Assembly (NCBI GenBank): GCA_022825065.1
Contig: JAJDYR010000037.1
Location: 7,805-71,804, forward strand
Length of the DNA: 64,000 nucleotides
Reading direction: 5' to 3'
Origin: a bacterium
GTDB lineage: Bacteria > UBA8248
A program made the translations under genes and the position numbers. The notes beneath the pieces were generated by a model that did not search any database, had not been told where the DNA came from, and saw only the letters and a program-made list of their open reading frames with translations. Positions 1 to 18,748 of this stretch are shown here, in pieces. Position 1 is the stretch's first letter, and each line of letters begins with the position of its first letter.

Positions 1-1
1 A

Positions 2-2722
2 TCCACGGAGATCAAAGATGATTTGCTGGATTTGCCCAACATTTCAAAGGTGGTTCTGAGCGGCTTGAGAGATTGGGAAATTTCAATCGAAGTCTCTGAG
101 GAGATGTTGCGCCGCTATGGTCTGACGTTTGATCGGGTGGCGAATATCATTCGCAAGAATGTGCTGGAACTCTCAGGCGGGGATATCCGTTCTGTGGAGC
201 GGAGAATCAGAATCAGGACGTTGGGAAAGCGCTACACTGGCCCGGAGTTCGAGCGGCTTGAAATACTTACCCAAAAAGACGGGGCCATTCTAAGACTTGG
301 CGATATTGCACGTGTGGTCGACGCTTTTGAGGATAGCGATACATCGGGCCGATTCAACGGGAAGCCGGCTGCGCTCATCATGGTGTATCGAACCGATGAG
401 GAAGATGCGCTTTCGATTTCTAAAACGGTAGTTGAATATGTCAAGAGAAAGCGAAAAGAACTGCCCGAAGGATTGGATCTGGCCCATTGGGCGGATACCT
501 CGCGTTTGATACAGGACCGGCTCGATCTTTTGTTGAGAAACGGTCGCGTCGGACTCGTTTTGGTTTTCCTCTCCATGTGGCTGTTTTTGAACATTCGCCT
601 TTCGTTTTGGGTGGCTATGGGAATTCCCGTCTCCCTGTTGACGGCTTTGGGTTTTTTGAACTTTTCCGGCAGCACGCTCAACATGCTCTCGATGTTCGCC
701 TTCATCATGGTTTTAGGGATACTGGTGGACGACGCCATCGTAGTGGCTGAAAATATCTATTCGCATATGGAAAGAGGAAAGAATCGCGTTCAGGCGGCAA
801 TTGACGGCTGTTATGAAGTCGCCCTGCCGGTTATCGCCACTGTCATGACATCCATTGTGGCTTTCGCTCCCTTGCTGATGGTGGCAGGAACGGTAGGAAA
901 ATTCATGGCGGTGCTTCCGGCGGCCATCATCGCCGCGTTAATCGCTTCTCTCATCGAATCGTTATTCATTCTGCCGGCTCATCTGGGACATTGGGTGCGG
1001 CCTCCCAGGGCGGGTGGACTCTCATCTCGTATGAGAAACACCATCGATAGAGGCATAAACTGGCTCATCCATCGGTTTTATGCGCCAATTCTGGAATTTT
1101 GCCTCAACGCCAGGTATCTGGTCATCGCCCTGGCTTTGGTGGTTTTTATGGTGACGGTAGGTTTGGCGGTTGGCGGGCATGTGAGGTTTTTATTTTTCCC
1201 AAAAATCGATTCCGATTGGGTGCATGTGAAAATTCTGTTTCCGCTGGGAACCCCGATTCGGCAAACGAAAAACGCGGCGCAAAAGATTGAGCAGGCAGCC
1301 GTTGCTCTTGACGAGGTTGTTCGCTCGAAAACGGGTGAACCGGTCGTCAAGCATGTATTTACAATACTGGGTGAGAATATCGACCCGGGCGGCGGGCGCA
1401 TCGTGGGAGGGAGCCATATGGCGCAGGTGATCCTCGAGATGCTGCCCTCGGAAGCCAGGGGAATCAGTTCTGAGGAAATCATCAACCGCTGGCGTTTGAA
1501 TACAGGAGAAATTCCCGATGTAACGAGCCTTACTTTCAGTACAGGAGGAGCCGGTCCGCCCGGTGGCAAACCTATAGATGTGCAGTTTTATGGTGATGAC
1601 ATCGGGACTTTGAGAAGAGTAGCTCAGGAGTTCAAGCGAGAGTTAACCAAATATCCCGGCCTATATGATGTTCAAGATGATTTCCGGCCCGGGAAGCTTG
1701 AGTTCCGAACATCATTGAAGCCGCAGGCCCGCGTTCTGGGTGTGAATCTGGATGACCTGGGGCGTCAGTTACGCGCGCGCTTTTTCGGGCTGCAAGTCCT
1801 GCGTCTGCAACGTGGCCGTGATGACGTGAAGGTCAAGCTTCGCTATCCATCCGAGGAAAGGCGTTCTCTGGAAGATATCAGGAAAATGAGGGTCAGGACG
1901 TCCTCAGGGGCGGAAATTCCTTTCCATGAGGTGGCGGAAGTCGAGATGATTCAAGGTCTTGATGCAATAAGACGAGTAGCCAGAGCCAGGGCTATTAACG
2001 TAACGGCCGAAATCGACCAGGATCGCGCCAATCCCACCGAGGTTCTGAACGCCTTGAATGCGAATTTCTTCCCCAAGCTCCTGAACCGCTATAACGGGGT
2101 AGGTATCAGATTCGAGGGTCAGGCCAAAGAGACGAGTGAATCATTCGCCAGCCTGTTTCGCGCTTTTGCGCTTGCAATGGCCGTTATTTTTGCGATTTTG
2201 GCCACTTTGTTCAGAAGCTATTTCCAACCCTTTATTGTCATGAGCGCCATTCCGTTTGGGATCGTTGGCGCAATATGGGGGCATATTGTCATGGGCTTCG
2301 ATATCTCCATCTTGAGTATGATGGGGATTTTGGCTCTTACCGGTGTTGTGGTGAACGACTCTTTGGTGCTTTTGGATTTCGCAAACCGGAGCATAAAAAA
2401 TGGCTTGTCGATTGAGGAGGCGCTTCAGCAGGCCGGTGTCGCCAGATGGAGAGCCATTGTTCTGACCACATTGACTACTGTCGCGGGATTGGGTCCGATG
2501 CTGTTTGAGAAAAGTTTTCAGGCGCAATTCTTGATTCCCATGGCAATTAGTTTATGTTTTGGACTGCTTTTCGCCACGGTGATAACACTCGTTCTCGTTC
2601 CTGTAATTTCTTTGATAGGCAACGACGTCGGGCGTTTTTGGTGGCGTATCTGGACGGGCAGATGGTTGACGAGAGAAGAAGTAGATGTGCATTCTCCTCA
2701 CAAAGAAGAGATAAGCGTTTAA
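2..2722 (+). CDS. RND-family efflux transporter permease (AcrB/CzcA-like), 5' end outside window
   Basis: The ORF is open to the window edge, so the 5' end is missing. The 899-aa product has typical RND interior motifs and 12-TM organisation (e.g. ...VDDAIVVAENI..., ...ALTGVVVNDSLVLLDF...). Confidence 0.85.
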   Translation, partial: STEIKDDLLDLPNISKVVLSGLRDWEISIEVSEEMLRRYGLTFDRVANIIRKNVLELSGGDIRSVERRIRIRTLGKRYTGPEFERLEILTQKDGAILRLGDIARVVDAFEDSDTSGRFNGKPAALIMVYRTDEEDALSISKTVVEYVKRKRKELPEGLDLAHWADTSRLIQDRLDLLLRNGRVGLVLVFLSMWLFLNIRLSFWVAMGIPVSLLTALGFLNFSGSTLNMLSMFAFIMVLGILVDDAIVVAENIYSHMERGKNRVQAAIDGCYEVALPVIATVMTSIVAFAPLLMVAGTVGKFMAVLPAAIIAALIASLIESLFILPAHLGHWVRPPRAGGLSSRMRNTIDRGINWLIHRFYAPILEFCLNARYLVIALALVVFMVTVGLAVGGHVRFLFFPKIDSDWVHVKILFPLGTPIRQTKNAAQKIEQAAVALDEVVRSKTGEPVVKHVFTILGENIDPGGGRIVGGSHMAQVILEMLPSEARGISSEEIINRWRLNTGEIPDVTSLTFSTGGAGPPGGKPIDVQFYGDDIGTLRRVAQEFKRELTKYPGLYDVQDDFRPGKLEFRTSLKPQARVLGVNLDDLGRQLRARFFGLQVLRLQRGRDDVKVKLRYPSEERRSLEDIRKMRVRTSSGAEIPFHEVAEVEMIQGLDAIRRVARARAINVTAEIDQDRANPTEVLNALNANFFPKLLNRYNGVGIRFEGQAKETSESFASLFRAFALAMAVIFAILATLFRSYFQPFIVMSAIPFGIVGAIWGHIVMGFDISILSMMGILALTGVVVNDSLVLLDFANRSIKNGLSIEEALQQAGVARWRAIVLTTLTTVAGLGPMLFEKSFQAQFLIPMAISLCFGLLFATVITLVLVPVISLIGNDVGRFWWRIWTGRWLTREEVDVHSPHKEEISV

Positions 2723-2847
2723 TTTGGTACTTGGTAGGATTGTCGGCTAAACAGTTTGCGGGAAAGTTTGTAATTTTTTCCAAGTAAGATTGCATTCATT
2801 CCCAATTTATAATTCCGTGAACAGATGAAGAAAGAGGATACGGTTTT

Positions 2848-3948
2848 ATGTCTTCACAATTCGATGTGCGCTACGGCGAAGAAATAGGAGACAAGATGGA
2901 AGCGGTTGTGATGACCGCGCCCGAAAAGCTTGAAATTCAATCCGTTCCTGTTCCGGAGCCGGATATCGGAGAAGTGCTTGTCAAAGTGGAGTGTACTACG
3001 ATTTGTGGTACTGACATCGAAATTATCAAAGGCGGACACCTCCCCAATTGGCCACCCAAACTTCCAGCTATCCTGGGGCACGAGTGGGCCGGCAGGATCG
3101 TGGCAATGGGTCCTATGACAGAGGGATTCGGTCTTGAGATGGGTGATGCCGTGGCGGGTACGAGCCATGCTGGATGCGGAGCCTGTCGCATGTGCCTGAT
3201 CGGACGCTATAACCTTTGCTATAATTATGGGAATACAATCACAGGCCACAGACAGTATGGGCATATTACGCAGGGTTCGTATGCCGAGTATGTGACAAAC
3301 AACATACGCGCGTTGCACAAGATGCCGGAGGAGATGTCTTTTGAGCATGGCTCAGCCGTAGATCCGGCCGGTTGCGGGTTATGGACGGCGAAACGCGCGG
3401 GTATCAACCCCGGTGATACTGTTGTAATTTTAGGTTCTGGACCAATAGGTGTTTTTGCTTATGAGTCAGCCAGGGCGATGGGCGCAGGGCGCGTGATTGT
3501 CGTGGGTGGTGGCCGGAGACTCGAGATATTAGAGGAACAAGGCGCTGAAGTAGTCAGTTACCGGGATGGTGGTGTGCCGGAACGAATAGATGAGATGACA
3601 AAAGGAAGAAAAGCAAACGTGGTGCTGGAGACGGCTGGAACCACGGATAGCTTTAGATGGAGTGTGGATTGTGGTGGCAAAGGCGCGCGTGTCGCCATTA
3701 CCGGCATACCGGAGAACATTCCTGATATGGCATGGAAACGCGTTGTGCTCGAAGAGATGGATATTTTCGGCGTTCGAGCGAATCCCAATTGCGGAGATGA
3801 GGTTTTGGCGCTCATTCATGCCGGTAGAATGAAAGTGGACCCATATATCACCCATCGTTTTCCTCTCAGGGAATACCAAGAAGCACACGATACGTTTGTA
3901 GCTCGAAAAGATGGCGCCTTGCTCGTGAACCTAACTCCTGGAGAATAA
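2848..3948 (+). CDS. Zn-dependent alcohol dehydrogenase, MDR superfamily (threonine/sorbitol dehydrogenase-like)
   Basis: Catalytic Zn ligand motif CGTDIE..GHEWAG is present, with structural Zn cysteines CGAC..C and a Rossmann GxGxxG (ILGSGPIG). Length is 366 aa. Confidence 0.8.
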   Translation: MSSQFDVRYGEEIGDKMEAVVMTAPEKLEIQSVPVPEPDIGEVLVKVECTTICGTDIEIIKGGHLPNWPPKLPAILGHEWAGRIVAMGPMTEGFGLEMGDAVAGTSHAGCGACRMCLIGRYNLCYNYGNTITGHRQYGHITQGSYAEYVTNNIRALHKMPEEMSFEHGSAVDPAGCGLWTAKRAGINPGDTVVILGSGPIGVFAYESARAMGAGRVIVVGGGRRLEILEEQGAEVVSYRDGGVPERIDEMTKGRKANVVLETAGTTDSFRWSVDCGGKGARVAITGIPENIPDMAWKRVVLEEMDIFGVRANPNCGDEVLALIHAGRMKVDPYITHRFPLREYQEAHDTFVARKDGALLVNLTPGE

Positions 3949-3953
3949 CGGAA

Positions 3954-4355
3954 ATGTCTCAAGGCGAGATGAAGTATGGCGCGAGGATGATTGCGGAGGC
4001 GGCACTCGAGGCCGTTCCGAATCCTTCACAGGAGCGAGATTACGTTGTCGATTTCACCATTCCCGAATTCACCTGTCTTTGCCCGATCAGCAATTTTCCC
4101 GACTTCGCCACGATTCGCATCAAATACATTCCTGGAGACAAGATCGTAGAGTTGAAATCCCTGAAGCTCTACATCAATAATTACCGGGATCGGGAAATTT
4201 TTCATGAACAAGTGGTCAGCACCATCCTTGATGACATGGTTGAAGTTTGTGAACCGAAGTGGATGTGGATTGAAGGCGATTTTAATGTGAGGGGAAATAT
4301 CAAAACGAAAATTAGGGCTACTCATGGCGTGAGACCACAAGATGTTACAGAATAG
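3954..4355 (+). CDS. queF: NADPH-dependent 7-cyano-7-deazaguanine reductase (preQ0 reductase)
   Basis: 133-aa protein carrying the QueF motif E-L-K-S-L-K-L-Y and a catalytic Cys in FTCLCPISNFPD, as in the type-I YkvM-like subfamily. Confidence 0.8.
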   Translation: MSQGEMKYGARMIAEAALEAVPNPSQERDYVVDFTIPEFTCLCPISNFPDFATIRIKYIPGDKIVELKSLKLYINNYRDREIFHEQVVSTILDDMVEVCEPKWMWIEGDFNVRGNIKTKIRATHGVRPQDVTE

Positions 4356-4454
4356 GTAAATTGCCGATCGAATTTGTACGTTGCGTGGTTAAAGCTATAA
4401 CAGATTGTCGAATGACAAATAAAATTCAGTGGTTTAAGCCATATTTTCTCTGAG

Positions 4455-6710
4455 GTGGAAATGACAGACTATAAAGTAGCGGGTATGGGCCTCACCCGGA
4501 TCGATGCCCCGGACAAAGTAGCTGGAAGTGCCAAATATGCGGCTGATGTCCCATCGAGCCGTGCACTTATCGGGTTGGTCTTGGGCAGCCCGCATCCGTA
4601 TGCAAAGGTGTTAAGCGTGGATGTTTCTAAGGCGCGTAGGATACCTGGCGTCCGTGCTGTCTTGACTCGCGATGAAGCTCCCCGCATTCGATTCGGCGCC
4701 AACATCAAGGATCAGAGTTGGTTTGCGCAGGATGGTTTCGTTCGCTACGGCGGAGAACCGGTGGCTGCCGTGGCCGCAGAAAACATCGATGCCGCCCAAA
4801 CAGCCATCGAATCGATTCGTGTGGAATATGAAGTTTTAGAACCGATAGTAAGCGGCTTGGATAGCCGGGCCGGCAAAGGTCTCGCTGTTCATGAAGATTG
4901 GAGAGAGTTGGGACTTGGCCCGGATGCGAACAAAAACATCATTGCGCGCTTTGAAAAGGAAATTGGAGATGTTGACGCCGGATACGAAGAGGCGGATCGC
5001 ATTTTTGAGCATACTTTTTCCACGCCGTTCGTACATGCCGGCTATATCGAACCTCACGCATGCACTGCCGAGGCAGGTGCCGACGGAAAAGTCACAATCT
5101 GGACGACCACGCAGGATGCGTGGGCCATTCGTGCGGATGTGGCCGAGGCACTTGGGTTTCCGGCAACACAGGTTCGAGTGATCCCGACTGAAATCGGAGG
5201 AGGTTTTGGCGCCAAGCTGAAGAGCACTTACGAGCACATCGCCGCTCTTTTGGCCTTAAGGACAGACCAGGCTGTTCGTATGGAGATGACTCGCGAGGAA
5301 GATCATATCGGAGTGAATCCGAGACACCCTCATTTCATCACGATACGCACGGCGGTGAAGGATGACGGTACGTTTGTCGCTCGCGAACTTGATGTCACGA
5401 TGGATCATGGAGCCTATGGCCGTGGCGCGCCGTTCCAGTGCAGTAGCAAGATGCTGATGGGTTCATGCTCATATCGTATTCCCAACGTCAGGATTCGCGC
5501 ATGTACGGTATATACCAATGGCCCTGTTTGCGGTCCTGTGCGTGCTCCTAGCGGCCCCCAATATCACTTTGCCACCGAAGTGCAGATGGACATCATCGCG
5601 CGCGAAATGGGGATCGACCCACTCGAAATTAGGCGAATTAACTCCCTCCGGCCCGGAGATGTGACACTGGCCGGGAAGGAGGAGGCACCGTCCATGCGTA
5701 GCGTTCTCGACTCAACGGCCGTGGAGGGGGATTGGGGGGAGAAGATTGAGGCGAACGGAGAACTCGAGGGAGAAGGGTGGAAACTCGGCCGCGGCATAGC
5801 TTGTGGGTATTGGCCAGGGCCGGGGGAGGCGTCTAGTTGTACGGTTCGCCTGAATCAGGACGGTACCGTTCAAGTGATAGCGGGAACGGTGAACCTAACG
5901 GGCATGAGTACTTCCATATGCCAACTCGCTGCAGAAGAATTGGGCGTAAGTTTGGATGAAGTGCGTTACACGAACGGAGATACGGATTCAGTGCCTGAAT
6001 CATCGGCGGCATCAGGTAGTAAGGCGACGCGTGCGGTGGGGATGGCTACCTTGAGTGCTGCGCGCGATTTGCGAAACAAGATTTTGAATGTGGCGAGTAT
6101 AAAGCTCGAAGCCGCTGCGGACGATCTGGTATTGGAAGATGGTCAAGTCAGGGTAGCTTCAGCGCCCGACCGGGCTCTTACACTTGCGCAGGTGGCCAAA
6201 GCGGCGCCTGAAATTCAGGGATTTTTAATAGGACAAGGGGAAAGCGCGAAGCCGCCGCCATGTCCAATACATACCGGACAGATAGCGGATGTGGCTGTCA
6301 ATCCCGAGCTCGGCGAGATCAGGGTTTTGCGTCTCACATGTGTCCAGGATGTGGGATTCGCCATCAATCCATTATCCGTTGTGGGCCAGATTGAGGGCGC
6401 TATGCTCCAGGGTCTCGGATTGGCTCTCATGGAAGAACAACCCCGGCGGCCGGATGGAAATTTGCATGGCGATACCTTCCATGAATATCTGATACCTACC
6501 AGCATGGATATGCCCGAACTGAAAGCCGTTTTGTATGACAATCCGGCCGAGGGCACACCCTATGGGATGAGGGGTGTGGGTGAACCGCCCATTGTGGCGA
6601 CTGCAGCGGCGATCGTGAATGCCATACAAGACGCAGTGGGAGTACCTGTTTTTTCACTGCCAGTCGGCCCACACCACATTCGTGAGGCTTTGGCGACGAG
6701 CAGCGTCTAA
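4455..6710 (+). CDS. Xanthine dehydrogenase/aldehyde oxidase family molybdopterin-binding (large) subunit
   Basis: 751-aa protein with N-terminal a/b-hammerhead and MoCo-binding regions (DKVAGSAKYAADV; GGGFG; ...GEPPIVATAAAIVNAI) typical of CoxL/XdhA-like Mo-hydroxylases. No adjacent FeS or FAD subunit genes. Confidence 0.8.
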   Translation: MEMTDYKVAGMGLTRIDAPDKVAGSAKYAADVPSSRALIGLVLGSPHPYAKVLSVDVSKARRIPGVRAVLTRDEAPRIRFGANIKDQSWFAQDGFVRYGGEPVAAVAAENIDAAQTAIESIRVEYEVLEPIVSGLDSRAGKGLAVHEDWRELGLGPDANKNIIARFEKEIGDVDAGYEEADRIFEHTFSTPFVHAGYIEPHACTAEAGADGKVTIWTTTQDAWAIRADVAEALGFPATQVRVIPTEIGGGFGAKLKSTYEHIAALLALRTDQAVRMEMTREEDHIGVNPRHPHFITIRTAVKDDGTFVARELDVTMDHGAYGRGAPFQCSSKMLMGSCSYRIPNVRIRACTVYTNGPVCGPVRAPSGPQYHFATEVQMDIIAREMGIDPLEIRRINSLRPGDVTLAGKEEAPSMRSVLDSTAVEGDWGEKIEANGELEGEGWKLGRGIACGYWPGPGEASSCTVRLNQDGTVQVIAGTVNLTGMSTSICQLAAEELGVSLDEVRYTNGDTDSVPESSAASGSKATRAVGMATLSAARDLRNKILNVASIKLEAAADDLVLEDGQVRVASAPDRALTLAQVAKAAPEIQGFLIGQGESAKPPPCPIHTGQIADVAVNPELGEIRVLRLTCVQDVGFAINPLSVVGQIEGAMLQGLGLALMEEQPRRPDGNLHGDTFHEYLIPTSMDMPELKAVLYDNPAEGTPYGMRGVGEPPIVATAAAIVNAIQDAVGVPVFSLPVGPHHIREALATSSV

Positions 6711-6742
6711 ATAACGTATCCGTTATTTTTAAGGAGAATCCA

Positions 6743-7408
6743 ATGCCTGTGGACGACAAAACCAGTTTGCCGGATAGTCTTGGCGTGACCGATGAGATGA
6801 TGGCGTGTCCTTTGCCAAGGTTGCCTTTCGTCGATCCTGACGATATCCCTGACGAGCTTAAGGAGGAACTCACCCCGCTCTATGACTGGTCGAAGCGGAT
6901 GTGGGGCACCGTCCCGCGTTTTTTGCAGCTTTTGGGAAATTCACCTCCCACGGTGGAAGGATGGATGTTGCTCGACCAGAAGCTCCGCACGAATCGATTG
7001 AAGACGGAGTCCGATTATATCCGTCTCATGGAGCTGGTTATCGTCAAAACGGCTATATTGACCGAGTGCAACAACTGAATCGGGCACAATGTGGAGCTCG
7101 GTCGGGCTCTGGGTCTTAGCCAGGATCAGATCAATCTACTTGAAGGCGATGATTGGAAAGACAGCGATTTGTTCGACGACAAGGAAAAAGCCGTTATCCG
7201 TTGGGCGGATGAAGTGTCGAAGTTCAGGGCGAAGAAAAACGACTTCGCATTCAGTGAAATGAAGAAGTATTTCTCCGATCGGCAGATCGTGGAACTCACT
7301 TTTATCTGTGGCATGTGGCATCTTTCCGGGAGGCTGGCCGAAGCGCTTCACTTGGTGGTGGAACCGCCGGGAGGACGCATCGAATTTCAAGCGGAAGACA
7401 TGGCCTAG
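6743..7408 (+). CDS. Carboxymuconolactone decarboxylase/AhpD-like family protein with an in-frame TGA at 7076-7078 (candidate selenocysteine; CxxU motif)
   Basis: The predicted ORFs 6743-7078 and 7091-7408 share one frame and are separated only by TGA. The read-through product ...LMELVIVKTAILTE-C-N-N-U-IGH-NVELGRALGL...IVELTFICGMWHL matches the CMD/AhpD core (CxxCxxxH). Confidence 0.5.
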
Positions 7409-7643
7409 ACACAGGACTGTTACCTGAAACATTAATCGGGCGCGGGCGAGCTTTCTGGCGTTTTGTGGATGCTCTGGGTTCGTGCGCGCATACAAATAAT
7501 ATCCCAGACATGGTCATCTGAAACTCATCTTTCCGGCCTCCTTGAAAAGTTAGCTTCGCGGGCACACCCGGTAAAAATGTAAGAATTTGCTTTGAATAGC
7601 ATATTTTATTGGTTGAAAAATAAGGACTTAAGCATAAAAAAAG

Positions 7644-7671
7644 TTGCTTTTTTTAACAATTTCTGTATACT
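7644..7671 (+). promoter_or_regulatory. Candidate sigma70-type promoter (TTGCTT-N16-TATACT) in an AT-rich intergenic region
   Basis: Hexamers TTGCTT (7644-7649) and TATACT (7666-7671) are separated by a 16-nt spacer. A GC hairpin follows (GCCCGCTTTG...CAAAGCCCGGGC, 7675-7711). Confidence 0.25.
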
Positions 7672-7745
7672 TGCCCGCTTTGTGATGTCGCCTGTGGCAA
7701 AGCCCGGGCAAATTCGTATCAAGCCGCCCGTAGGATGAGGATGAA

Positions 7746-7913
7746 ATGATCGAGTTAAGAGATAGTGATGTCGTTTTGGATCACGAGTTTTTTGCAGAAT
7801 CCGGAGATGTGCTGCCAAGCGATGTGGACTATGATGTGTCTGACAAAGGCGTAGCTGATGATTTCTATATTTTAAGTGACGGTGAAGGGGGGAATGCTCC
7901 TGCTGTACAATAG
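7746..7913 (+). CDS. Small acidic hypothetical protein (55 aa, D/E-rich)
   Basis: ATG-initiated ORF MIELRDSDVVLDHEFFAESGDVLPSDVDYDVSDKGVADDFYILSDGEGGNAPAVQ sits downstream of the candidate promoter. It falls below the 60-aa cut-off of the supplied ORF track and has no recognisable family. Confidence 0.2.
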   Translation: MIELRDSDVVLDHEFFAESGDVLPSDVDYDVSDKGVADDFYILSDGEGGNAPAVQ

Positions 7914-7999
7914 TGTTCCTTCCAAAAAAGGATTCAACGCCCGGTTGAAGTATCAGCCGGGCGTTTCTTTTGTCCTGAAATTTTTGCAGGATACGTGTT

Positions 8000-8872
8000 T
8001 TGCTTCATGAATCGGGGAAAAATGTGATGGCTACGGACGAACAGACGATTCACCATGAAGACGTGCGGGGGCGTATCCTCTCAGCGGATTCGATGACTTA
8101 TTTTGACGAAAGGGTTGGGGAAAGGGACGTTCTCGTTAGTGGTTCCTATGCCGCACGAATGACGATTGCCTGGGCAATGCGCTTGGGGGCGAGAGCAATC
8201 ATTGCCCATGCAGCGGGAGTCGGGAAGGATAATGCGGGGATCAGCGGCTTATCTTTGGCTCAGGAATATCATGTACCTGCGTTGGCGTGTGAAACCATGT
8301 CCGCGAGACTCGCCGTGGGAGAATCCGTGTATGAAGGCGAAGTCGGTCATGCGAATCAAGCGGCTGAAAACCTTGGTGTTGAAATCGGTCAATCCATAGC
8401 AGATGCTTCGGGTTGTTTGCTCGATGCCGAAACGGGCCGGAAAGTAATTGTCGAGGAAAGTCTTGATGATAAAATTTATGAGCTGGAGCAATTTCCGAAT
8501 GGTAATATACGCGCTTCCTGGGGAATTCCCGTCCTGCGTTCTATCAAGGAACCAAGGCCCCAAGATGTTTTTATCCAAGCTTCTCATTGCGGACTTACTC
8601 TTGTCCCTCACGTTATGAAGCTTAGCCTGAAGGGTGTAATTGCGAATGACGCGGGCCGGGGGAAAGATGATTCCGGTATCGCATCTTTCCCCTTTCTGGC
8701 GCGAGAGGGTATCGCGGCGGCGGCGGTTGGCGCGATGAGCGCGCGCATTGGTGATGTGATGAGCACATGGGAAGACGGCGTGATTTCATGCATGAATGAA
8801 GTAGCGGAAAAGCGCGGAGTACGAGAAGGCATGAGGACGCGAGAGGCGGCTCACGCCATGCTCAATCGTTAG
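8000..8872 (+). CDS. Hypothetical protein (no family recognised); start may be ATG at 8027
   Basis: 290-aa ORF at native GC with no competing ORF. No motif recognised. Confidence 0.45.
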   Translation: MLHESGKNVMATDEQTIHHEDVRGRILSADSMTYFDERVGERDVLVSGSYAARMTIAWAMRLGARAIIAHAAGVGKDNAGISGLSLAQEYHVPALACETMSARLAVGESVYEGEVGHANQAAENLGVEIGQSIADASGCLLDAETGRKVIVEESLDDKIYELEQFPNGNIRASWGIPVLRSIKEPRPQDVFIQASHCGLTLVPHVMKLSLKGVIANDAGRGKDDSGIASFPFLAREGIAAAAVGAMSARIGDVMSTWEDGVISCMNEVAEKRGVREGMRTREAAHAMLNR

Positions 8873-8894
8873 GGTTTAACTCAAGAAGCTGCGC

Positions 8895-8970
8895 TGGTGG
8901 AGGTGAGGGGATTCGAACCCCTGACCTCGTGGGTGCGATCCACGCGCTCTCCCATCTGAGCTACACCCCC
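8895..8970 (-). tRNA. tRNA-Ala (anticodon CGC), CCA encoded
   Basis: The reverse complement reads GGGGGTGTAGCTCAGATGGGAGAGCGCGTGGATCGCACCCACGAGGTCAGGGGTTCGAATCCCCTCACCTCCACCA. This folds as a cloverleaf with the G3:U70 identity pair, anticodon loop AU-CGC-AC and T-loop GGTTCGAATCC. Confidence 0.85.
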
Positions 8971-9023
8971 ACAAAAGGAATATGAAGGTAGGCGAAGGAG
9001 CCTCGGGTGTCAAGTGAAAAAGG

Positions 9024-9305
9024 GAGAGCCGATGAAGAGCTCCCCCTAGGAGACTTCACCGGCTCTCGACCTGCCGCAGAGTCCGCCCGTTTCCCCCGCA
9101 GCAGGGAATTCCGCTCGATTTAATGTGGGAGCCGAAGACTCAACCACCGAGGTGTATTATCCCCGGCTCCCGATCCTGCTGCAGAGTCCGCCCGTTTCCC
9201 CCGCAGCAAGAGAATTCACTTTGGTGAGAGTCGGGGAAAAACCCTCCGAGGATTCTCCCCCGACTCTCGTCCCGTCGCAGAGTCCGCCCGTTGCCCCCCC
9301 GACGG
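9024..9305. repeat. Tandem array of 3 x ~100-bp units, each with two hairpins (type B then type A) with conserved loops and covarying stems
   Basis: Type-B hairpins: GAGAGCCG/CGGCTCTC (9024-9067), GGGAGCCG/CGGCTCCC (9127-9171), GAGAGTCGGGG/CCCCGACTCTC (9226-9268). Type-A hairpins at 9070-9105, 9174-9209 and 9270-9305 have a near-invariant loop CAGAGTCCGCCCGTT(T/G)CCCCC and stems TGCTGC/GCAGCA versus CCCGTCG/CGACGGG. Confidence 0.6.
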
Positions 9306-9320
9306 GTAACAACTGATTTT

Positions 9321-12300
9321 TTAAGAACATCCACTCGTCGCACCGCAAGTCATGCATTTCAGGCAGGTACCGTTTCTTACCAGGGTGAATAAACCGCAAT
9401 CGCCACATGCCTCACCCTCGTACCCTTTGGCGCGGGCTTCTTCGATACGCGAATCGAGGGCGGAGCCTGCTTCTGCGATAGGCGTCAACGAAGCGAAGGT
9501 GGATTCTTTCTCATAATTCAGGCTTATCCGGTCACTACGCGGTGCGCTTGCATCTGGTCCCGGGAATATGGTTTGAATCTCCTCTTCTTCCTCGGTGTCG
9601 AACTCGGGGATCTCTTCCTGAGGGCGCCCAATGGTATCGCTCCTCAGGTCCTCCGACACCACTTGCGCAAGGTCGTGGCGTCCGAGATATGAAACTGCCA
9701 ACTCACGGAAGATGTAATCGATGATGGATGTGCTCATCTTGATATGCGGGTTGCCTGAAACCATGCCCCCTGGTTCGAAGCGGGTGAAAACAAATGCATC
9801 CACAAATTCATCCAGAGGGACGCCATGCTGTAACCCCAGGGAAATGGCGATGGCGAAACAGTTCATAAGGCTTCTGAAGGCGGCGCCTTCTTTGTGCATA
9901 TCTATGAAAATTTCACCAATCGAACCATCCTCGTATTCCCCGGTTCTAAGATACACCTTGTGCCCGCCGATGACGGCTTTTTGGGTGTATCCACCGCGAC
10001 GGGTAGGCAACTTGCGTCTTCTGGATTGGTAAATAATCCGGCGCACAATCTGCTGGGCTACGTGCATGGGTGCGCTTTGGGAAGCTGGTTCTTCTTCACT
10101 GATGTCAGCGAAGATTTCCGCTTCGCTTAGCGCGGAAAGTGGCTGGCTTAGTTTCGAACCATCACGGTAAATCGCAATGGCTTTGGTCATCCGCTGCCAC
10201 GATTCGCGGTAGATATCCAAGATGTCTTGAATTGTGGATTCTGATGGCATGTTGATGGTTTTGCTGATAGCGCCTGATATAAAAGGCTGCGCCGCCGCCA
10301 TCATCCGAACATGGGCCATTGGGCTGATGAAGCGCTTGCCTTCGCGTCCGCATTTGCTGGCGCAATCAAAAACAGCTAGATGTTCTTCTTTTAGGTGGGG
10401 AGCGCCTTCCAGCGTCATTTTGCCGCAAACGAAATCATTCGCTTCGCTGATTTGCTCCGGGGTGAAACCAATGGCTTCCAGCAGATTCAGGTTCCAGTCG
10501 GCAATTTGCGCTTCATTGAACTCTAATTGTTCACGGCAGAAGTCTTCTCCAAGGGAGTATTTGTTGAAGGCGAACTGGATTTCAAATGCCCCCTCAAGCG
10601 CGGCTTCCACCTTTTCGAGGGCCTTGCTGGTGAACCCTTTTGCGTGTAGAGATTCTGGATTGATGTGAGGCGCATTCGTGAGGGTGCCCCGCCCCCGGCA
10701 GTAGGTGACGATTTCGCGGATTTCTTCGTCATCATAACCCAGATGCCGCAAGGCAAGAGGAACGGACTGGTTGATGATCTTGAAGTAACCGCCCCCCGCC
10801 AGTTTCTTGAATTTCACCAAAGCAAAATCAGGCTCGATTCCGGTTGTGTCGCAATCCATTACCAAGCCAATAGTGCCCGTCGGTGCGATGACAGTAGCTT
10901 GCGCATTCCGGTAGCCGTTTCGATAGCCGATGGCCAAAGCGTCATCCCACGCCTCTCGCGCCGCCTGGAGAAGATAATGGGGACAGGTTTCCGCATCGAT
11001 TCCTTTTGGCGCTTTAGAGAGCATTTCGTATTCGGCTTCAGGCACTGAATAAGCTGCGCGGCGGTGGTTTCTCAGAACGCGCAACATGTGCTCTTGATTG
11101 TCTTGATACCTGACGAAAGCGCCCAGTTCTCCGGCCATCTCGGCGCTTGTGGCGTACGAGCAGCCTGTCATGATGGAGGTGAGAGCCCCGCACCACGCTT
11201 CCGCTTCCGGTGAATCGTAAGGGATGCCGAGAACCATCAACAAGGTGCCCAGATTGGCGTATCCAAGCCCCAGGGTACGATACTCGAATGAGCGTTTGGC
11301 TATTTCGGGACTGGGGAATTGCGCCATCAGCACTGAAATTTCAAGGACGACTGTCAATAGGCGGATAACGTGGCGATAGTCTTCTATCTGAAAATGGTTC
11401 TTTTCAGTATCCAAAAATTTCATGAGATTCATCGATGCCAGATTGCATGCGGTGTCATCCAGGAACATGTATTCCGAGCAGGGATTAGAGCCGTTGATGC
11501 GCCCATCGGCGGCGCACGTGTGCCAGTCGTTGATGGTCGAATCGAATTGAAGACCGGGATCTGCGCAACACCACGCCGCGTATCCAATCTGATCCCAAAG
11601 CTCTTTCGAGTTGACGGAACCGGCGATTTTACCATCGGTGCGCCGAATCAGGTTCCAATCCGTATTTTTCTCGATGGCTTTCATGAATTCGTCTGAAACG
11701 CGTATGGAATTATTCGAGTTTTGCCCGGACACCGAGGTGTAGGCCTCGCCTTCCCAATTCGTGTCGAATTCCTCGAACTCGATTCCGGTGATTCCTTGCC
11801 GCGCGAGTTGAAGGGTTCGATGAATATAATTGTCCGGAACACCGGCTAGCCTTGCGGCGCGTATCGCTTTGGCGAGTGATGGGTTCTTATCCGGCTGATG
11901 GAGGTTGCCGTTCAATCCCGGGTTTTCCCCCTCCTGGCAAGCCACGAGAATAGCGTTCATGTGCCGGTTGCACATCTTGCTGCCCGAAACCAGGGCAGCC
12001 ACTTTCTGTTCTTCATTCACCTTCCAGTTGATGAATTCCTCGATGTCGGGATGATCGATGTCGAGCGTGACCATCTTCGCTGCCCGGCGTGTCGTGCCGC
12101 CCGACTTGATGGCGCCCGCGGCGCGGTCCCCAATCTTGAGGAAACTCATGAGGCCGGAGCTTCTTCCGCCTCCCGAGAGAGATTCCCCTTCCGCTCTCAA
12201 GCTCGAGAAATTCGTGCCGGTGCCGGAGCCGTATTTGAAGATGCGCGCCTCGCGCGTCCATAAATCCATGATCCCGCCCTCGTTGACGAGATCGTCTTTC

Positions 12301-12929
12301 ACCGATTGGATGAAGCACGCATGCGGCTGGGGACGTTCATAGGCGTTGGTGGAGCGGAGTATTTCCCCGGTTTCGGGGTCGCAATAGAAATGGCCCTGGG
12401 CGGGGCGCGTAATGCCGTAAGCCCAGTGGAGGCCCGTATTGAACCACTGAGGCGAGTTGGGAGCCGCCATCTGGCTCGCAAGTATGTATAAGAGCTCCTC
12501 GTAAAACGCCTTGGCGTCCTCTTCGGTGTGAAAATAACCGTGTTTCCAGCCCCAATACGTCCAGCATCCCGCCAGACGGTGGAAAACGTCCCGCGCGTCT
12601 TGCTCGCTCCCGTATTGCTCATCCTCGGGCAGGGATTCGAGTTTTTCCGTGTCTGGCTCCGAGCGCTGCAGCCACTCGGGCACGCCGTCTTCGGGAATCT
12701 TTTTCAAATGGGCGGGGACGCCGGCTTTCCGGAAGTATTTTTGCGCCAGGATGTCGACGGCCACCTGAGACCAGCTCTCGGGCGCCAGGATGTCCTTCGC
12801 TTCGAAGACGAGCGAGCCGTCCGGGTTCGTGATGCGCGAGGTGCGCGGCGCGAAACCGACCTCGCCGTACGCATCGTCTCCAGCCCGGGTAAAACGCCTC
12901 GTCAACTCCACTTTCAGCCTCCTCCGCAA
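9321..12929 (-). CDS. nrdJ: Class II adenosylcobalamin-dependent ribonucleoside-diphosphate/triphosphate reductase
   Basis: 1202-aa ORF with RNR class II hallmarks (ATP-cone-less N-terminus, active-site region ...[21 protein letters not shown]...) and a C-terminal Cys-rich Zn ribbon CGDCG...CLKCMTCG. Confidence 0.85.
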
Positions 12930-13376
12930 GGGCGCCCCGCTGTGTCGGGGACATATTTAGTATGGCGAAATCGAACCGTAACACTAAATGTAGTATGCTT
13001 TGCCCTCGTCTGTCAATACCCTAAAAACAGATATACACAAAATATATGAACTTACCCACACCTTATCCCCAAATGTTGTGTTTTCCTGTGGATAACCGGC
13101 GCAAGAAGAGAGCGGAGGGCTGAGACCCGCCCGGTTATCCCCCGCCGCCTCGTTTCCAGAAGCGGCGGCGCGCCCTTCATGGACGCTCCGGAGCGCCTGA
13201 ACCCGGAGGGCGCGGCCGCTGTCCGGCGCGCCGGTATCGCGTGAGAACGCCCGCAAAAACGCCTCGGATGCGCCCGGAAAGGCATCGTTAATTTATCGAA
13301 AAACCCCGTGAATTTATCTAATTATATCGAATTGTTTCAGCCTTTTTACCGATTTTTTCTCCTCAATCCCGACCGA

Positions 13377-13445
13377 TGAAGGAGGGATTGACGCGACTGG
13401 GGAAGGAGGGATTGACGCGACCAGGGAGGGAGGGATTGCAATTCC
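13377..13445. repeat. Three tandem 22-23-bp direct repeats GAAGGAGGGATTGACGCGAC(Y)(R)GG
   Basis: The sequence gaaggagggattgacgcgactgg / ggaaggagggattgacgcgacca / gggagggagggattgcaattcc. It is preceded by an inverted partner, AATCCC...GGGATT. Confidence 0.5.
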
Positions 13446-13834
13446 CCTGGGCGCGGAAGATCGCCCCCGCTCGACCCGGATCGTCTTCTCCATTTTCTCC
13501 CCTCCTTTCATCGCCGGGAACGATTTCTTTCCCGCGCGGAATTCTCGCCCATGCAGGCGAAAACCCGCTGACGGCAATTGCGGGGAGATGCGTGGTTCCC
13601 AGCGGCCGACCACATCGGCGCGCGCGCCGTCATCGTCCAGGCGCTCGATGAGGAGGCCGGAAATTTCTGCGAGCGCTTCGGCTTCCGCGCGTTCCCGGAT
13701 CGCGAGCCGCTCATGCTGCTGCTGAGGATATCGGATTTAAGGGACATGTTTTAGGGTAGGGCGTGCGCGGATTCGGAGATAGGCGGCTTGGCTCAAGGTT
13801 GGCTGAGCGATGGATTATCGCAGGTACGCTCCGC

Positions 13835-14182
13835 TCAGTCCTGCTCAAGGAGTACGGCCAGCTTTTCGAGCGTCTCGCCCACCACGCGCGGCGGAGCCTG
13901 CGACGCGAGGCGCACGCCTCTGGCGCGCCAGTCGAGGCTCTTCACTTGGTCGGCGAGAACCACGCCCGTAACGGGGCCATCGGTGGGGAGCGCCACCTCG
14001 AAGGGATAGCCCTTGACTCTCGAGGTGATGGGGCACAAGAGCGCGAGGCTGCTTTTCTCGTTATAGCTTCGCGGGCTGACGACCAGCGCGGGTCGGCGGC
14101 CAGTCTGCTCATGCCCGGCCTGGGGGGTGAAGGAAAGCCAGACGATGTCGCCTCTGCCCGGAACGAAGTCCGCGCCCGAAAC
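13835..14182 (-). CDS. mazF: Type II toxin MazF/PemK family endoribonuclease
   Basis: The C-terminal 115 aa of the 190-aa ORF align with E. coli MazF: VSGADFVPGRGDIVWLSFTPQAGHEQTGRRPALVVSP...GYPFEV...VLADQVKSLDWRARG. The likely start is GTG at 14182, so the Arg-rich N-terminal extension is probably not translated. Confidence 0.75.
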   Translation of the reverse strand, partial: VSGADFVPGRGDIVWLSFTPQAGHEQTGRRPALVVSPRSYNEKSSLALLCPITSRVKGYPFEVALPTDGPVTGVVLADQVKSLDWRARGVRLASQAPPRVVGETLEKLAVLLEQD

Positions 14183-14193
14183 CTCCCGTCTCG

Positions 14194-14433
14194 CTACCAC
14201 GCCTCTGCGCCCTGCGCCGGGCCGGCGTCCTGCTCGGCGTGCAGGTTGTCCGCGTTTATTTCGGCGAGCATGTCGGCCAGACGGTAGCCTCTTTTCCTCA
14301 TCACCACCCGGTCGCCGCGCGCGTTCATCTCGATGGCCGAACCCTCGCGCACGCCCCATTGCTCGGCGATGGGCTTCGGGATGCGGACGGCCAGGCTGTC
14401 CCCCCATTTCGCGATATGCGATTTCGCGCCCAT
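14194..14433 (-). CDS. mazE: Type II antitoxin MazE (AbrB/SpoVT fold)
   Basis: 79-aa protein beginning MGAKSHIAKWGDSLAVRIPKPIAEQWGV, which is the MazE/AbrB swapped-hairpin motif. It lies 11 nt upstream of mazF on the same strand. Confidence 0.75.
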   Translation of the reverse strand: MGAKSHIAKWGDSLAVRIPKPIAEQWGVREGSAIEMNARGDRVVMRKRGYRLADMLAEINADNLHAEQDAGPAQGAEAW

Positions 14434-14439
14434 GCGGTT

Positions 14440-14480
14440 ATCCTCCTATCAGGTGTTCATATCTATAATATATATCTTTT
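14440..14480 (-). promoter_or_regulatory. AT-rich alternating-purine/pyrimidine palindromic stretch upstream of mazE (candidate promoter/operator)
   Basis: The sequence catatctataatatatatctttt lies immediately 5' of the mazE start on the minus strand. MazE-MazF complexes are known to autoregulate through palindromic operators. Confidence 0.25.
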
Positions 14481-14582
14481 AGAGGGTGTTGTCGAGGGTG
14501 AGGGTCGGCTGCTCTTCAATACTACCAGCATGTTGATTATTACTCCCCCTTGAGGGGGCTGTTGAAAAAGTCCTCACATCTC

Positions 14583-14690
14583 CCTCATCCTGAGTAGCGG
14601 CGGAGCCGCGTATCGAAGGATGCCCTCTCGCACGCCGGGAGATGCCTCCCATCCTTCGATACGGCGCTTTCGCGCCTACTCAGGATGAGG
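14583..14690. repeat. 108-bp imperfect palindrome (long hairpin; MITE/REP-like)
   Basis: CCTCATCCTGAGTAGCGGCGGAGCCGCGTATCGAAGGATG ... CATCCTTCGATACGGCGCTTTCGCGCCTACTCAGGATGAGG. Confidence 0.5.
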
Positions 14691-14889
14691 TTTTGTGGCC
14701 ACCGGCGCGGCAGGAAGGAGGACCACCGCGTAACCCCCAATTCCGCCCGCGCCGAAACGGGCTTTTTAACAGCTCCGAGGAGGGGGGATTGCCGGAATCC
14801 GGAGCCGATGAATAGTGGAGAAATTTTAGCCCTTCTTTCTCTCAATGACTGAAAAGGAACGACAGCGAAAAAAGAAAAGGATAAATTCC

Positions 14890-14916
14890 CTGGATTCCGG
14901 CGTACGCCGGAATGAC
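14890..14916. repeat. Solo terminal inverted repeat of MITE family 2 (CTGGATTCCGGCGTACGCCGGAATGAC)
   Basis: It matches the right TIR of the complete family-2 copies at 21865-21993 and 26300-26434. A degraded partner (gggattgccggaatccgg) lies about 120 bp upstream. Confidence 0.4.
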
Positions 14917-14978
14917 GGCGAAGAACCACCGGGATAACACGCGGGCCTCGGCTGGTCTCACCGGCGCGCTTGGTGGAT

Positions 14979-15719
14979 TTATCCGTATGTTTCGTTCGTG
15001 CTAAATCGCACCGCTCTCGGCATCTCATCCCACGTTCTGTCGTCAAGCACACGCCCCGTTTTCTTCTTGAACACGCCGCCCCATTGCTTGAAGAAGAAGG
15101 GCGTGCTGCTGTTCACGCAGTTGTCGCGAATCTCCCTCACCCAGTCCGCCTCCATCGGCCTCGCGCCCGGCCCGGACTCACCGCCGACGACCACCCAGTC
15201 GACCCCCGTCAAATTCAAGGCCGGCAAGGGGCCGAGCAGGGGCTCCAAAGAGAGAAACTTCGTCCGCGCGCCGGTTGCCCTGAGCGGCGCCAGACGCCCG
15301 AGCCATTTTTCGGATTCCACGCTCGCGCCGAGCCAGATGTTGGGCGTCCAATTCAGCCTCCGCCCAAGCAGAGCGGCACGGCCCGGCCGCTTGGTGAGCA
15401 CCTGAAACGTGTGCCGGGTCGCGCGGTTCATCACGTCGAAAACGGACTCGATGAAACCGGACGGCACCGATTGATGAAACAGATCGGACATGGAATTGAC
15501 GAAGACGAGGCGCGGCTTCTTCCATCTCAAGGGTTCATCGAGCGAGGAATCGTGTGTGGCGACAGTGAAACCGTTCTCGTACTTCTCGATTCCCATGCCC
15601 TGGAGCCGTCTCGACATCCTCTCGGCGTAGCAATGCTTGCACCCAGGGCTTATCTTCGTACAGCCGGTAACCGGGTTCCAGGTCATCTCGGTCCATTCGA
15701 TACTCGAAATCGTGGACAT
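14979..15719 (-). CDS. DUF5131 / phage Gp37-Gp68 family three-Cys-motif protein
   Basis: The N-terminus WNPVTGCTKISPGCKHCYAE (CX6CX2C) and overall length of 246 aa fit the Gp37/Gp68 family. Regions such as WLGASVESEKW and FFFKQWGG are also present. Confidence 0.75.
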   Translation of the reverse strand: MSTISSIEWTEMTWNPVTGCTKISPGCKHCYAERMSRRLQGMGIEKYENGFTVATHDSSLDEPLRWKKPRLVFVNSMSDLFHQSVPSGFIESVFDVMNRATRHTFQVLTKRPGRAALLGRRLNWTPNIWLGASVESEKWLGRLAPLRATGARTKFLSLEPLLGPLPALNLTGVDWVVVGGESGPGARPMEADWVREIRDNCVNSSTPFFFKQWGGVFKKKTGRVLDDRTWDEMPRAVRFSTNETYG

Positions 15720-15735
15720 GTCTATATGTGTAGCC

Positions 15736-17070: not shown

Positions 17071-17149
17071 CTTGCAGTCTATCGTAAAGCGTTATTGGCC
17101 TCACCGGGGATTCATTTCTTCAAAAGAATGGAGTGGAAATTAGTACACA

Positions 17150-17407
17150 CTACAAACCCAAATCCTCGAACAACTCCTCGGCGCCATCGAAGTGCTTTCC
17201 CTTGCCTTCGTCCAACTCCTTCATCGCCTTGCGGGTGGCGGGGTTCGGCGCGCGGACGACGAAGGGCAGCCTACGCTCCTCCGCCACGCGCATCATGAGC
17301 AGGCGAATCGCATCGGAGACGGAAAGGCCCATCGCGTTCAAAGCTTCTGTGGCGCGGGCCTTGGTCTCGCTGTCGATTCTGGCGCGCACGACCGTATCGG
17401 TTGGCAT
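17150..17407 (-). CDS. dinJ: RelB/DinJ-family type II antitoxin (orphan)
   Basis: 85-aa protein MPTDTVVRARIDSETKARATEALNAMGLSVSDAIRLLMMRVAEERRLPF with the RHH/DinJ signature. No RelE/YafQ toxin ORF lies in the 79-nt gap downstream. Confidence 0.7.
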   Translation of the reverse strand: MPTDTVVRARIDSETKARATEALNAMGLSVSDAIRLLMMRVAEERRLPFVVRAPNPATRKAMKELDEGKGKHFDGAEELFEDLGL

Positions 17408-17499
17408 GTCATGCCCTCCTCTTACGTAGCCTCATTGTAGCTACAGCACCTTTTCTCTCTTGTCAAGACTGAATCCGAGTGGTTCTGTCTGAATTCCTC

Positions 17500-17625
17500 T
17501 CCCATTCGGCATCGGCGCGGAACCTGGGTCTAATGGGCGCGGTTTATCGCTTTTGGAACGCCTAATCCGAAGGAGAAAACATGGCGGCGTATGACGTGAC
17601 GGTTATCGGTGGTGGTTCCTACGAT
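17500..17625 (+). repeat. Left copy of a diverged ~115-bp direct repeat duplicating the lpdA upstream region and first 12 codons (partner at 20090-20215)
   Basis: cccattcggcatcggcgcggaacctgggtctaatgggcgcgg...aaggagaaaacATGGCGGCGTATGACGTGACGGTTATCGG is about 80% identical to the native lpdA 5' region. Confidence 0.7.
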
Positions 17626-17649
17626 TTGGTCCGGATCAAAGCGAGGTGA
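17581..17649 (+). pseudogene. Truncated duplicate of the lpdA 5' end (MAAYDVTVIGGGSYDLVRIKAR*)
   Basis: The first 12 codons match lpdA (MAAYDVAVIGGG), then the sequence diverges into a stop. Confidence 0.6.
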
Positions 17650-18745: not shown

Positions 18746-18748
18746 GTC

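Follow-up and report, generated by a model that had tools for sequence, protein, structure and literature searches.

What does the single in-frame TGA at positions 7076-7078 of this stretch of bacterial DNA do: does it end one short gene ahead of another, or is it read as an amino acid within a longer one? The stretch, hereafter the window, comprises 64,000 nucleotides of contig JAJDYR010000037.1 (positions 7,805 to 71,804, forward strand) of assembly GCA_022825065.1, assigned to UBA8248, and comparison of its sequence with that of related loci leads us to conclude, with high confidence, that positions 6743-7408 are one gene of the AhpD/carboxymuconolactone decarboxylase (CMD) fold whose UGA encodes selenocysteine (Sec). 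On the + strand, a single frame runs from an ATG at 6743 to a TAG stop at 7406-7408 with the TGA as its one internal stop codon, and read-through yields a product of 221 residues with Sec at position 112, in the context ...TAILTE-C-N-N-[TGA]-I-G-H-N-VELGRALGL.... A mechanical listing of open reading frames (ORFs) reports 6743-7078 (111 aa) and 7091-7408 (105 aa) in this common frame, and the public gene calls also give a 111-aa and a 105-aa ORF, the second beginning with the GTG at 7091. The first-pass annotation of this DNA had described two ORFs in one frame with a lone TGA between their coding parts, a 221-aa read-through protein with C-N-N-[TGA]-I-G-H-N, and a gene mis-split by ORF calling, all of which is reproduced here from the sequence and from the public calls. 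The elements of the gene are listed below.

6732-6736, + strand: Shine-Dalgarno-like AGGAG, 6 nt upstream of the ATG, as read from the sequence.
6743-7408, + strand: coding sequence of the predicted AhpD-like selenoprotein, 221 residues in one frame; Cys homologues of about 219 aa align with it end to end.
7031-7033, + strand: codon of Glu97, the likely counterpart of the AhpD proton-relay Glu according to profile alignment to 2IJC/PA0269.
7067-7069, + strand: codon of Cys109 (TGC), which opens the CxxU motif and is the likely resolving thiol, from the sequence and its conservation in Sec forms.
7076-7078, + strand: UGA codon, very probably read as Sec112; it aligns with the invariant Cys112 of homologues.
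7085-7090, + strand: codons of His115 and Asn116, invariant in the family, between the TGA and the mis-called GTG at 7091.
7092-7111, + strand: hairpin resembling a selenocysteine insertion sequence (SECIS), with an 8-bp stem and a GGUC tetraloop at 7100-7103, from the minimum free energy (MFE) fold and conservation.

The assignment of Sec is based first on what homologues encode at the position of the TGA. Scans of one-genome-per-species and metagenome collections yielded about 150 related loci, and classification of the aligned codon by tblastn (153 loci) gave TGA in 124, TGC in 20, TGT in 8, and TGG in 1. The full-length Cys-type homologues (about 219 aa) share 49-60% identity with the window protein; column 112 is Cys in 20 of 20 full-length homologues, and His115 and Asn116 are invariant. 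The check proposed in the first-pass annotation, that homologues should carry Cys or Sec at this column, thus came out in its favor, with 124 TGA loci compared to 28 with TGC or TGT. The closest TGA relatives are found in metagenome-assembled genomes (MAGs) labelled Nitrospinota or Nitrospinaceae, and a copy on the 4.28-Mb chromosome OZ244799.1 (L007) is 99% identical. Other TGA forms derive from Tectomicrobia, Rhodospirillales, Acidimicrobiia, Methyloligellaceae, Chthoniobacterales, and Acidobacteriota MAGs, with protein identity decreasing to 31%. Many genomes carry a second TGA paralogue (L048-L072) that is about 61% identical, has the motif ECNN-U-LGHN and also a GGUC hairpin, and lies in another gene neighborhood; an example at 10001-10663 of L057 is located on OZ244799.1, the same chromosome as L007. 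Two relatives are irregular. One (L001, 10001-10670) is a close relative with both TGA and hairpin and with two frameshifts in its N-terminal half, which are probably sequencing errors rather than signs of a pseudogene because the contig is named as having 2x coverage. The other (L002, 365-811) is a decaying copy from a high-GC organism, in which the N-terminal half is deleted and the TGA has become TGG (Trp); its hairpin, GAGCTC-GGTC-GAGCTC, is intact despite the decay of the gene.

The second line of evidence is the hairpin itself. The MFE fold parses as U-G-GAGCUC / GGUC loop / GGGCUC-U-G over 7092-7111, with a core at 7094-7109 in which GAGCUC (7094-7099) pairs with GGGCUC (7104-7109) over 6 bp; G·U pairs lengthen the stem to 8 bp, and the GGUC tetraloop starts 21 nt after the UGA. 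Folding of the sequence downstream of the TGA, as the first-pass annotation had suggested, therefore does recover a SECIS-like stem-loop, although the parse offered there, GAGCTCGG-TCGG-GCTC, is replaced by the better one given here. Essentially all 88 unique TGA forms have the hairpin in register, compared to none of 20 Cys forms, even though the peptide that the Cys forms encode there (V-[ED]-L-G-R) is similar. In 87 of the 88 TGA forms the hairpin Leu is encoded by CTC, and the loop Gly is encoded by GGT in the same proportion (87/88), whereas elsewhere in the same sequences Leu and Gly use all of their synonymous codons; GGT occurs at the loop-Gly position in 0 of 20 Cys forms. The hairpin of the TGA forms is thus maintained by constraint on synonymous sites, a constraint that is missing in the Cys forms. 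Across the alignment, 89.7% of cells at paired positions can pair (about 98% in the core), compared to 18-58% in controls in which the 3' arm was slid, and double, compensatory changes occur at 4 hairpin pairs, as in GGGCUC...GAGCCC of the SDYU variants L043, L045, and L047 and in CGCUU-GGUC-AAGCG of the 31%-identical L081. RNAalifold recovered this hairpin as the sole consensus structure, and its 16-nt sequence occurs once in the window compared to 0.01 occurrences expected. Mean MFE over the 48 nt past the codon was a poor discriminator (-15.8 kcal/mol in TGA forms versus -13.5 kcal/mol in Cys forms); the informative measures are in-register pairing and codon usage rather than overall folding energy.

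How closely the hairpin resembles known bacterial SECIS elements (bSECIS) can be judged in several ways. The bSECIS criteria of Zhang and Gladyshev from 2005 reportedly call for a G in the apical loop and a UGA-to-loop distance of about 16-37 nt; the window hairpin is a stem-loop directly past the UGA with G in its loop and a distance of 21 nt. In the SECIS of E. coli fdhF, the loop starts 18 nt after the UGA, and its G23 and U24 contact SelB. Like that element, the window hairpin lies within the coding sequence directly past the UGA and has a GGUC-type apical loop, and by this analogy its position and GGU-containing loop resemble those of the SelB-binding fdhF SECIS; unlike it, the window hairpin has a different stem sequence, no evident bulged U, and a loop that is one codon farther from the UGA (21 nt). 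No Rfam family matches the hairpin, and a permissive scan of 7040-7160 returned noise only, with no curated bacterial SECIS that fits.

Whether the codons past the TGA are translated in the frame of those before it bears on several competing explanations. The frame is open on both sides of the TGA in 111 of 111 full-length TGA loci, and in 25 unique close orthologues the ratio of nonsynonymous to synonymous substitution rates (dN/dS) has almost the same value before the TGA (codons 1-111, 0.058) and after it (codons 113-221, 0.055). The four codons from the TGA to the GTG at 7091 encode I/V/L-G-H-N, and among TGA forms those for His (CAC 77, CAT 11) and Asn (AAC 60, AAT 28) show synonymous third-position variation only; because the invariant His and Asn vary only in this way, the stretch between TGA and GTG must be translated in frame. 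At the position of the GTG, TGA forms show GTC, GTG, GTA, GTT, or ATC, such that this codon lacks conservation. Since the downstream half is translated and the GTG is not conserved, readings of the locus as a pseudogene or as two genes are excluded for practical purposes. A nonsense mutation in a Cys-type AhpD-like gene, followed by decay of the downstream half, would be consistent with the splitting of the locus into 111-aa and 105-aa ORFs by gene callers and with the existence of one genuine truncated remnant among the relatives (L002). Such a history is nevertheless extremely improbable given a TGA retained in 124 loci across phyla, a downstream dN/dS that matches the upstream value, the lack of any additional stop or frameshift in all full-length loci, and a hairpin specific to TGA forms that is maintained at synonymous sites. 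The first-pass annotation had also preferred read-through to a pseudogene, and the equal dN/dS on both sides, the open loci, and the TGA-specific hairpin uphold that preference. It is likewise very improbable that translation stops at the TGA (111 aa) and restarts at the GTG at 7091 (105 aa), the two halves then assembling as a split AhpD fold. The GTG is indeed only 12 nt past the TGA and public annotation calls both ORFs, but the 12-nt gap encodes I/V/L-G-H-N with invariant His and Asn and synonymous changes only, the GTG codon is variable among TGA forms, the Cys forms are single polypeptides, and a split at this point would cut the active-site helix between Cys109 and His115.

Translation past the TGA could in principle proceed without selenium, by insertion of Trp, Cys, or Gly through a near-cognate or suppressor tRNA or a reassigned code. 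This explanation gains from the lack of detectable Sec machinery in the sequence searched (the 64-kb window and 1.68 Mb of related loci) and from the TGG at this codon in L002. It is very improbable all the same. TGA is the ordinary stop of many well-supported genes of the window, including trpB, trpA, leuC, leuB, and asd, and the genetic code is therefore not reassigned; the homologue column is Cys and never Trp or Gly, with the truncated remnant L002 excepted; a hairpin at fixed distance with a G-rich apical loop, found in TGA forms only, is the signature of SelB-dependent recoding; and relatives are documented as Sec users. Nothing specific favors an error of sequencing or assembly that changed TGC or TGT into TGA, other than that one relative (L001) does have frameshift errors in its 2x-coverage contig. 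The exact 111-aa N-terminal half ending at the TGA was found in 16 contigs from independent metagenome assemblies, and the 124 TGA loci come from many studies and sequencing platforms, leaving this last explanation a negligible probability and ruling out the assembly error that the first-pass annotation had named as a way in which its proposal could fail. The preferred reading, then, is that the UGA at 7076-7078 would be recoded co-translationally to Sec, with the hairpin at 7092-7111 acting as a bacterial SECIS that recruits SelB·GTP·Sec-tRNA(Sec) while the UGA occupies the ribosomal A site, after which translation would continue to the TAG at 7406.

Several observations weigh against Sec insertion at this codon or against the assignment of the product to AhpD. 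Searches of the 64-kb window and of 1.68 Mb of sequence from related loci found neither tRNA-Sec nor selA, selB, or selD: ARAGORN and Rfam identified tRNA-Ala and tRNA-Met only in the window, ARAGORN identified no tRNA-Sec in the 1.68 Mb, and a tblastn screen for SelA, SelB, and SelD, with E. coli sequences that served as probes only, had a GTPase as its sole match. This match to the SelB probe was rejected as SelB, the GTPase being IF2, whose gene adjoins that of NusA. Pfam annotation of 40 further genes of the window returned housekeeping functions only, and crude scans of the window and of all loci for an in-frame TGA followed by a hairpin returned no candidate in a real coding frame and hence no independent support. 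The source genome is presumed to encode the Sec machinery. The window protein also scores below every curated family threshold (PF02627, TIGR01926, and NF053654), and its His is shifted by one residue relative to canonical AhpD, a shift that may entail different chemistry. The adjacent genes include no peroxiredoxin gene (ahpC) and none for an obvious reductase, and no AhpC-TSA or Redoxin gene was detected within ±10 kb in the window and the near-identical contigs L003-L006 or among the annotated genes at 13-64 kb of the window. A Pyr_redox_2 flavoprotein encoded at 20170-21573 was considered as a partner and dropped, since it is 13 kb away and beyond a strain-variable region. Lastly, the sequence of the hairpin is near-invariant and its core pairs are mostly fixed, which limits covariation, and part of the conservation of the hairpin could result from that of the encoded peptide, E-L-G-R-A.

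Indirect support for Sec machinery comes from reports that relatives of the source organism use Sec. In BSepDB, for which selenoproteins were sought only in genomes encoding at least two of SelA, SelB, and SelD, three 'Nitrospinota' MAGs that belong to GTDB phylum UBA8248 carry 48-54 selenoprotein genes (PMC13326102). Among them is FO_M_Nitrospinota_01, with 54 selenoprotein genes (PMC13326102), the MAG from which L030 derives; this TGA orthologue, like the window gene, lies downstream of a gene for a molybdenum (Mo) hydroxylase.

To which family does the product belong? PF02627 (CMD) matches the joined protein over residues 95-157, a span that includes the stop, at 22.2 bits compared to a cut-off of 23 (E = 1.4e-4), and a Pfam search with each half alone returned no match. 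The statement in the first-pass annotation that both halves match one Pfam-type family was thus mistaken, as only the joined protein hits PF02627, and the profile check that it proposed for the read-through translation gave the predicted match across the stop but with a score short of the cut-off. TIGR01926 (peroxidase-related) aligns over its full length (residues 26-208 to model positions 2-177/178) at 34.8 bits compared to a cut-off of 81.8; NF053654 (YciW-related (seleno)protein), the best NCBIfam match to the C-terminal domain, reaches 46.4 bits compared to 310; and NF041238 (AhpD-related (seleno)protein) scores 10.7 bits compared to 175. Scores of the Cys homologues are likewise short of the NCBIfam cut-offs, with 34.2 and 52.6 bits on TIGR01926, although two of them (P0020 and P0021) have PF02627 in their precomputed annotation and the JGI name for the Cys homologues is 'alkylhydroperoxidase family enzyme'. 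The most distant TGA form, L081, scores 75.1 bits compared to 81.8 on TIGR01926, passes the AhpD core-domain model, and shares the CxxUxxHN motif and the GGUC-loop hairpin with the window gene; it bridges this branch to the published AhpD-like family. Because the curated thresholds of all named families are missed, the window protein is filed as an uncurated relative, that is, as a probable branch of the known "AhpD-like, CxxU" selenoproteins, and not as a member of TIGR01926.

The fold was assessed with an AlphaFold (AF2) model of P0020, a Cys homologue with the motif CNNC that is 53% identical to the window protein (pLDDT 92.9, pTM 0.90). The top 36 Foldseek matches of this model in the PDB are all AhpD/CMD proteins at a probability of 1.0 and include 2GMY, 6K40 (TM 0.73), 2PRR, 2OYO, and Bmp8. 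Matches of the family profile to the PDB are led by 2GMY (6.6e-16), followed by PA0269, 2OYO, Bmp8, 6K40, and 2PRR. As modelled, the fold is the all-helical AhpD/CMD fold of the TIGR01926-like "peroxidase-related" type.

The active site of this branch differs in detail from that of canonical AhpD. The family motif is (C/S/G)-x-x-(C/U)-x-x-H-N, realized in the window protein as C109-N-N-U112-I-G-H115-N116, and the canonical motifs used for comparison were C-A-F-C-V-D-M-H (2GMY) and C-L-Y-C-A-V-S-H (2OYO). The His is at +3 from the second Cys or Sec compared to +4 in the canonical motif, where the invariant Asn116 takes its position, and HMMER alignment of the His requires a one-residue insertion in 2OYO. 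Glu97, Cys109, and Sec112 are in register with the AhpD relay, with His115 offset by one residue; the relay Glu corresponds to Glu118 in M. tuberculosis AhpD and Glu36 in PA0269 (PMC3141380). The motif C-x-x-C-x-x-x-H that the first-pass annotation had aligned here thus needs correction to C-x-x-U-x-x-H-N, with the His one residue closer. Among 97 unique Sec forms, position 97 is Glu in 61 and Gln in 35, and the first motif Cys (109) is retained in 93, compared to 1 of 21 Cys forms; in the latter, residue 109 is almost always Ser or Gly (20/21) and residue 97 almost always Gln. This pattern suggests that Sec and Cys forms use different mechanisms, the former with two residues and the latter with one Cys.

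Because the first Cys is kept in Sec forms and mostly lost in Cys forms, we infer that Sec112 would be the nucleophile and Cys109 the resolving residue, with formation of a selenenylsulfide. The proposed role of Sec112 agrees by analogy with M. tuberculosis AhpD, whose second Cys (Cys133) acts as the attacking nucleophile. The first-pass annotation had placed Sec both at the 'catalytic' Cys and in place of the 'resolving' Cys; the former description fits the invariant second Cys and stands, and the latter does not, since it is the first Cys that most Cys homologues have lost. In the mechanism envisaged, Sec112 would lie at the N-terminus of the active-site helix, with Glu97 on a neighboring helix, and would be oxidized by its substrate, which may be a peroxide, a peroxiredoxin-type sulfenate or disulfide, or another electrophile. 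Cys109 would then resolve the oxidized Sec112 to a selenenylsulfide that would in turn be reduced by a reductant, making the gene product a putative thiol/selenol oxidoreductase. Our confidence in this specific chemistry is lower than that in the reading of UGA as Sec.

Selenoproteins of this general kind have been described repeatedly. AhpD-like CxxU selenoproteins were reported from the Sargasso Sea as 27 sequences of COG2128 (PMC1088965), AhpD-like 1 was among the most abundant selenoprotein families of the Global Ocean Sampling (GOS) data with 299 Sec and 902 Cys sequences (PMC2398784), and a 2026 review, which also names other AhpD/CMD branches that contain Sec, places the AhpD-like selenoprotein under TIGR01926 (PMC13188914); the first-pass annotation was right to call the family an established one. 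The window gene shares with AhpD-like 1 (COG2128) its fold class, Sec as the second residue of CxxU at the active-site helix, widespread Cys homologues, a predicted bacterial SECIS directly past the UGA, and membership in a family that is abundant in marine metagenomes. It differs from TIGR01926-type proteins (about 180-190 residues) in an N-terminus that is about 30-40 residues longer, and model scores set the branch apart, the window protein and its close Cys homologues together covering 34-53 bits compared to the required 81.8. Other CxxU Sec branches of the same superfamily are represented by NF053654, NF041238 (CFYUT), and a PF02627 CMD-like selenoprotein (PMC13188914), but the window protein is far below the equivalog cut-offs of the first two and is thus not a member of either.

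Compared to characterized AhpDs (M. tuberculosis 1GU9, D. radiodurans 6K40, and P. aeruginosa PA0269 2IJC/7XW1), the predicted protein has the same all-helical AhpD/CMD fold, relay Glu, vicinal C-x-x-C/U pair, and nearby His, but it differs in having the His at +3 rather than +4, Asn at +4, and Sec for the second Cys. M. tuberculosis AhpD is outside the significant Foldseek matches of the P0020 model (E = 3), and unlike this AhpC-coupled type of AhpD, the window gene has no ahpC or peroxiredoxin gene nearby and has a Mo-hydroxylase gene as its neighbor instead. The debrominase Bmp8 (6OHI), a thiol-dependent dehalogenase of the CMD fold, is matched over its full length (profile E = 3e-07, TM 0.66) and shows that this fold can host catalytic-Cys chemistry beyond peroxide reduction; however, its identity is only 17-20%, and the neighborhood of the window gene contains no halogenated-pyrrole pathway.

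The neighborhood of the gene is dominated by the Mo-hydroxylase gene, which ends 32 nt upstream of the selenoprotein ATG.

4455-6710, + strand: upstream gene for the large subunit of a Mo-hydroxylase, 751 aa (Pfam Ald_Xan_dh_C/MoCoBD_1/MoCoBD_2).

Its product is a molybdopterin-binding large subunit of the xanthine dehydrogenase/aldehyde oxidase family that scores below all NCBIfam equivalog cut-offs, the best model being that for the alpha subunit of 4-hydroxybenzoyl-CoA reductase (465 versus 995 bits). The subunit is an 'orphan' in that no genes for [2Fe-2S] or FAD subunits are adjacent. Further upstream are genes for the preQ1 synthase QueF, a Zn-dependent dehydrogenase, and an RND efflux pump. 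Orthologues from Nitrospinota-labelled and Tectomicrobia MAGs keep this gene order as far as about 61% identity, and within this clade the Mo-hydroxylase gene always precedes the Sec-AhpD-like gene, with which it is probably co-transcribed. Alphaproteobacterial and actinobacterial relatives, the second paralogue, and the Cys forms do not share this order. A more specific proposal is that the protein represents a distinct, as yet uncurated Sec branch, marked by CxxUxxHN, short Cys-His spacing, and an obligatory vicinal Cys that is missing in Cys-type relatives. In Nitrospinota-labelled and Tectomicrobia genomes, its members would be dedicated to the orphan Mo-hydroxylase, as its redox partner or its protector, and not to general peroxide defense of the AhpD kind; we regard this as a speculative and rather unlikely possibility. 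Downstream of the gene, 7409-7965 is an AT-rich spacer with a conserved 55-aa acidic ORF at 7746-7913 that is called in related contigs too, followed at 7936-7965 by a strong hairpin that resembles a terminator, with a stem of 13 bp and a run of T.

What the locus adds is modest. With AhpD-like CxxU selenoproteins on record since 2005 and the lineage already reported to be selenoprotein-rich, little here is new in kind. The points that are new concern the variant motif CxxUxxHN, a vicinal Cys kept in Sec forms and lost in Cys forms, a predicted SECIS (GAGCUC-GGUC-GRGCUC) that is almost identical across phyla, and the presence of two Sec paralogues in many genomes; moreover, linkage to the orphan Mo-hydroxylase gene could point to the physiological substrate of the family. 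In practical terms, a probable 221-residue selenoprotein is listed publicly as two "hypothetical" ORFs, and since its score is short of every curated (seleno)protein model, automated pipelines will keep mis-calling the gene in well over a hundred genomes and metagenomes.

Other observations concern the remainder of the window. Its composition shifts from a GC content of 0.46-0.54 (about 0.5-0.65 at third codon positions) at 1-20000 to about 0.63 (0.8-0.9 at third codon positions) at 20001-64000; the low-GC block, which extends from the RND pump to RNR, is not a recent insertion, since it is syntenic across species. The region at 13000-20000 (16200-20300 in L003 and L004) is a strain-variable hotspot with toxin-antitoxin modules, a DUF5131 protein, and a pentapeptide-repeat protein, and it differs between near-identical contigs, with TacA/GNAT in L003 compared to PemK/MazE in L004. 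On the - strand, 27643-29676 encodes a membrane redox protein of the fusion type (678 aa) that combines a Nitrate_red_gam-like domain with 4Fe-4S domains and two CCG (HdrD-like) domains, and it adjoins a gene for a B12-binding-domain protein at 29670-30260. On the + strand, 40711-44720 contains three tandem paralogous genes for Peripla_BP_6 binding proteins followed by livHMGF-like ABC transporter genes.

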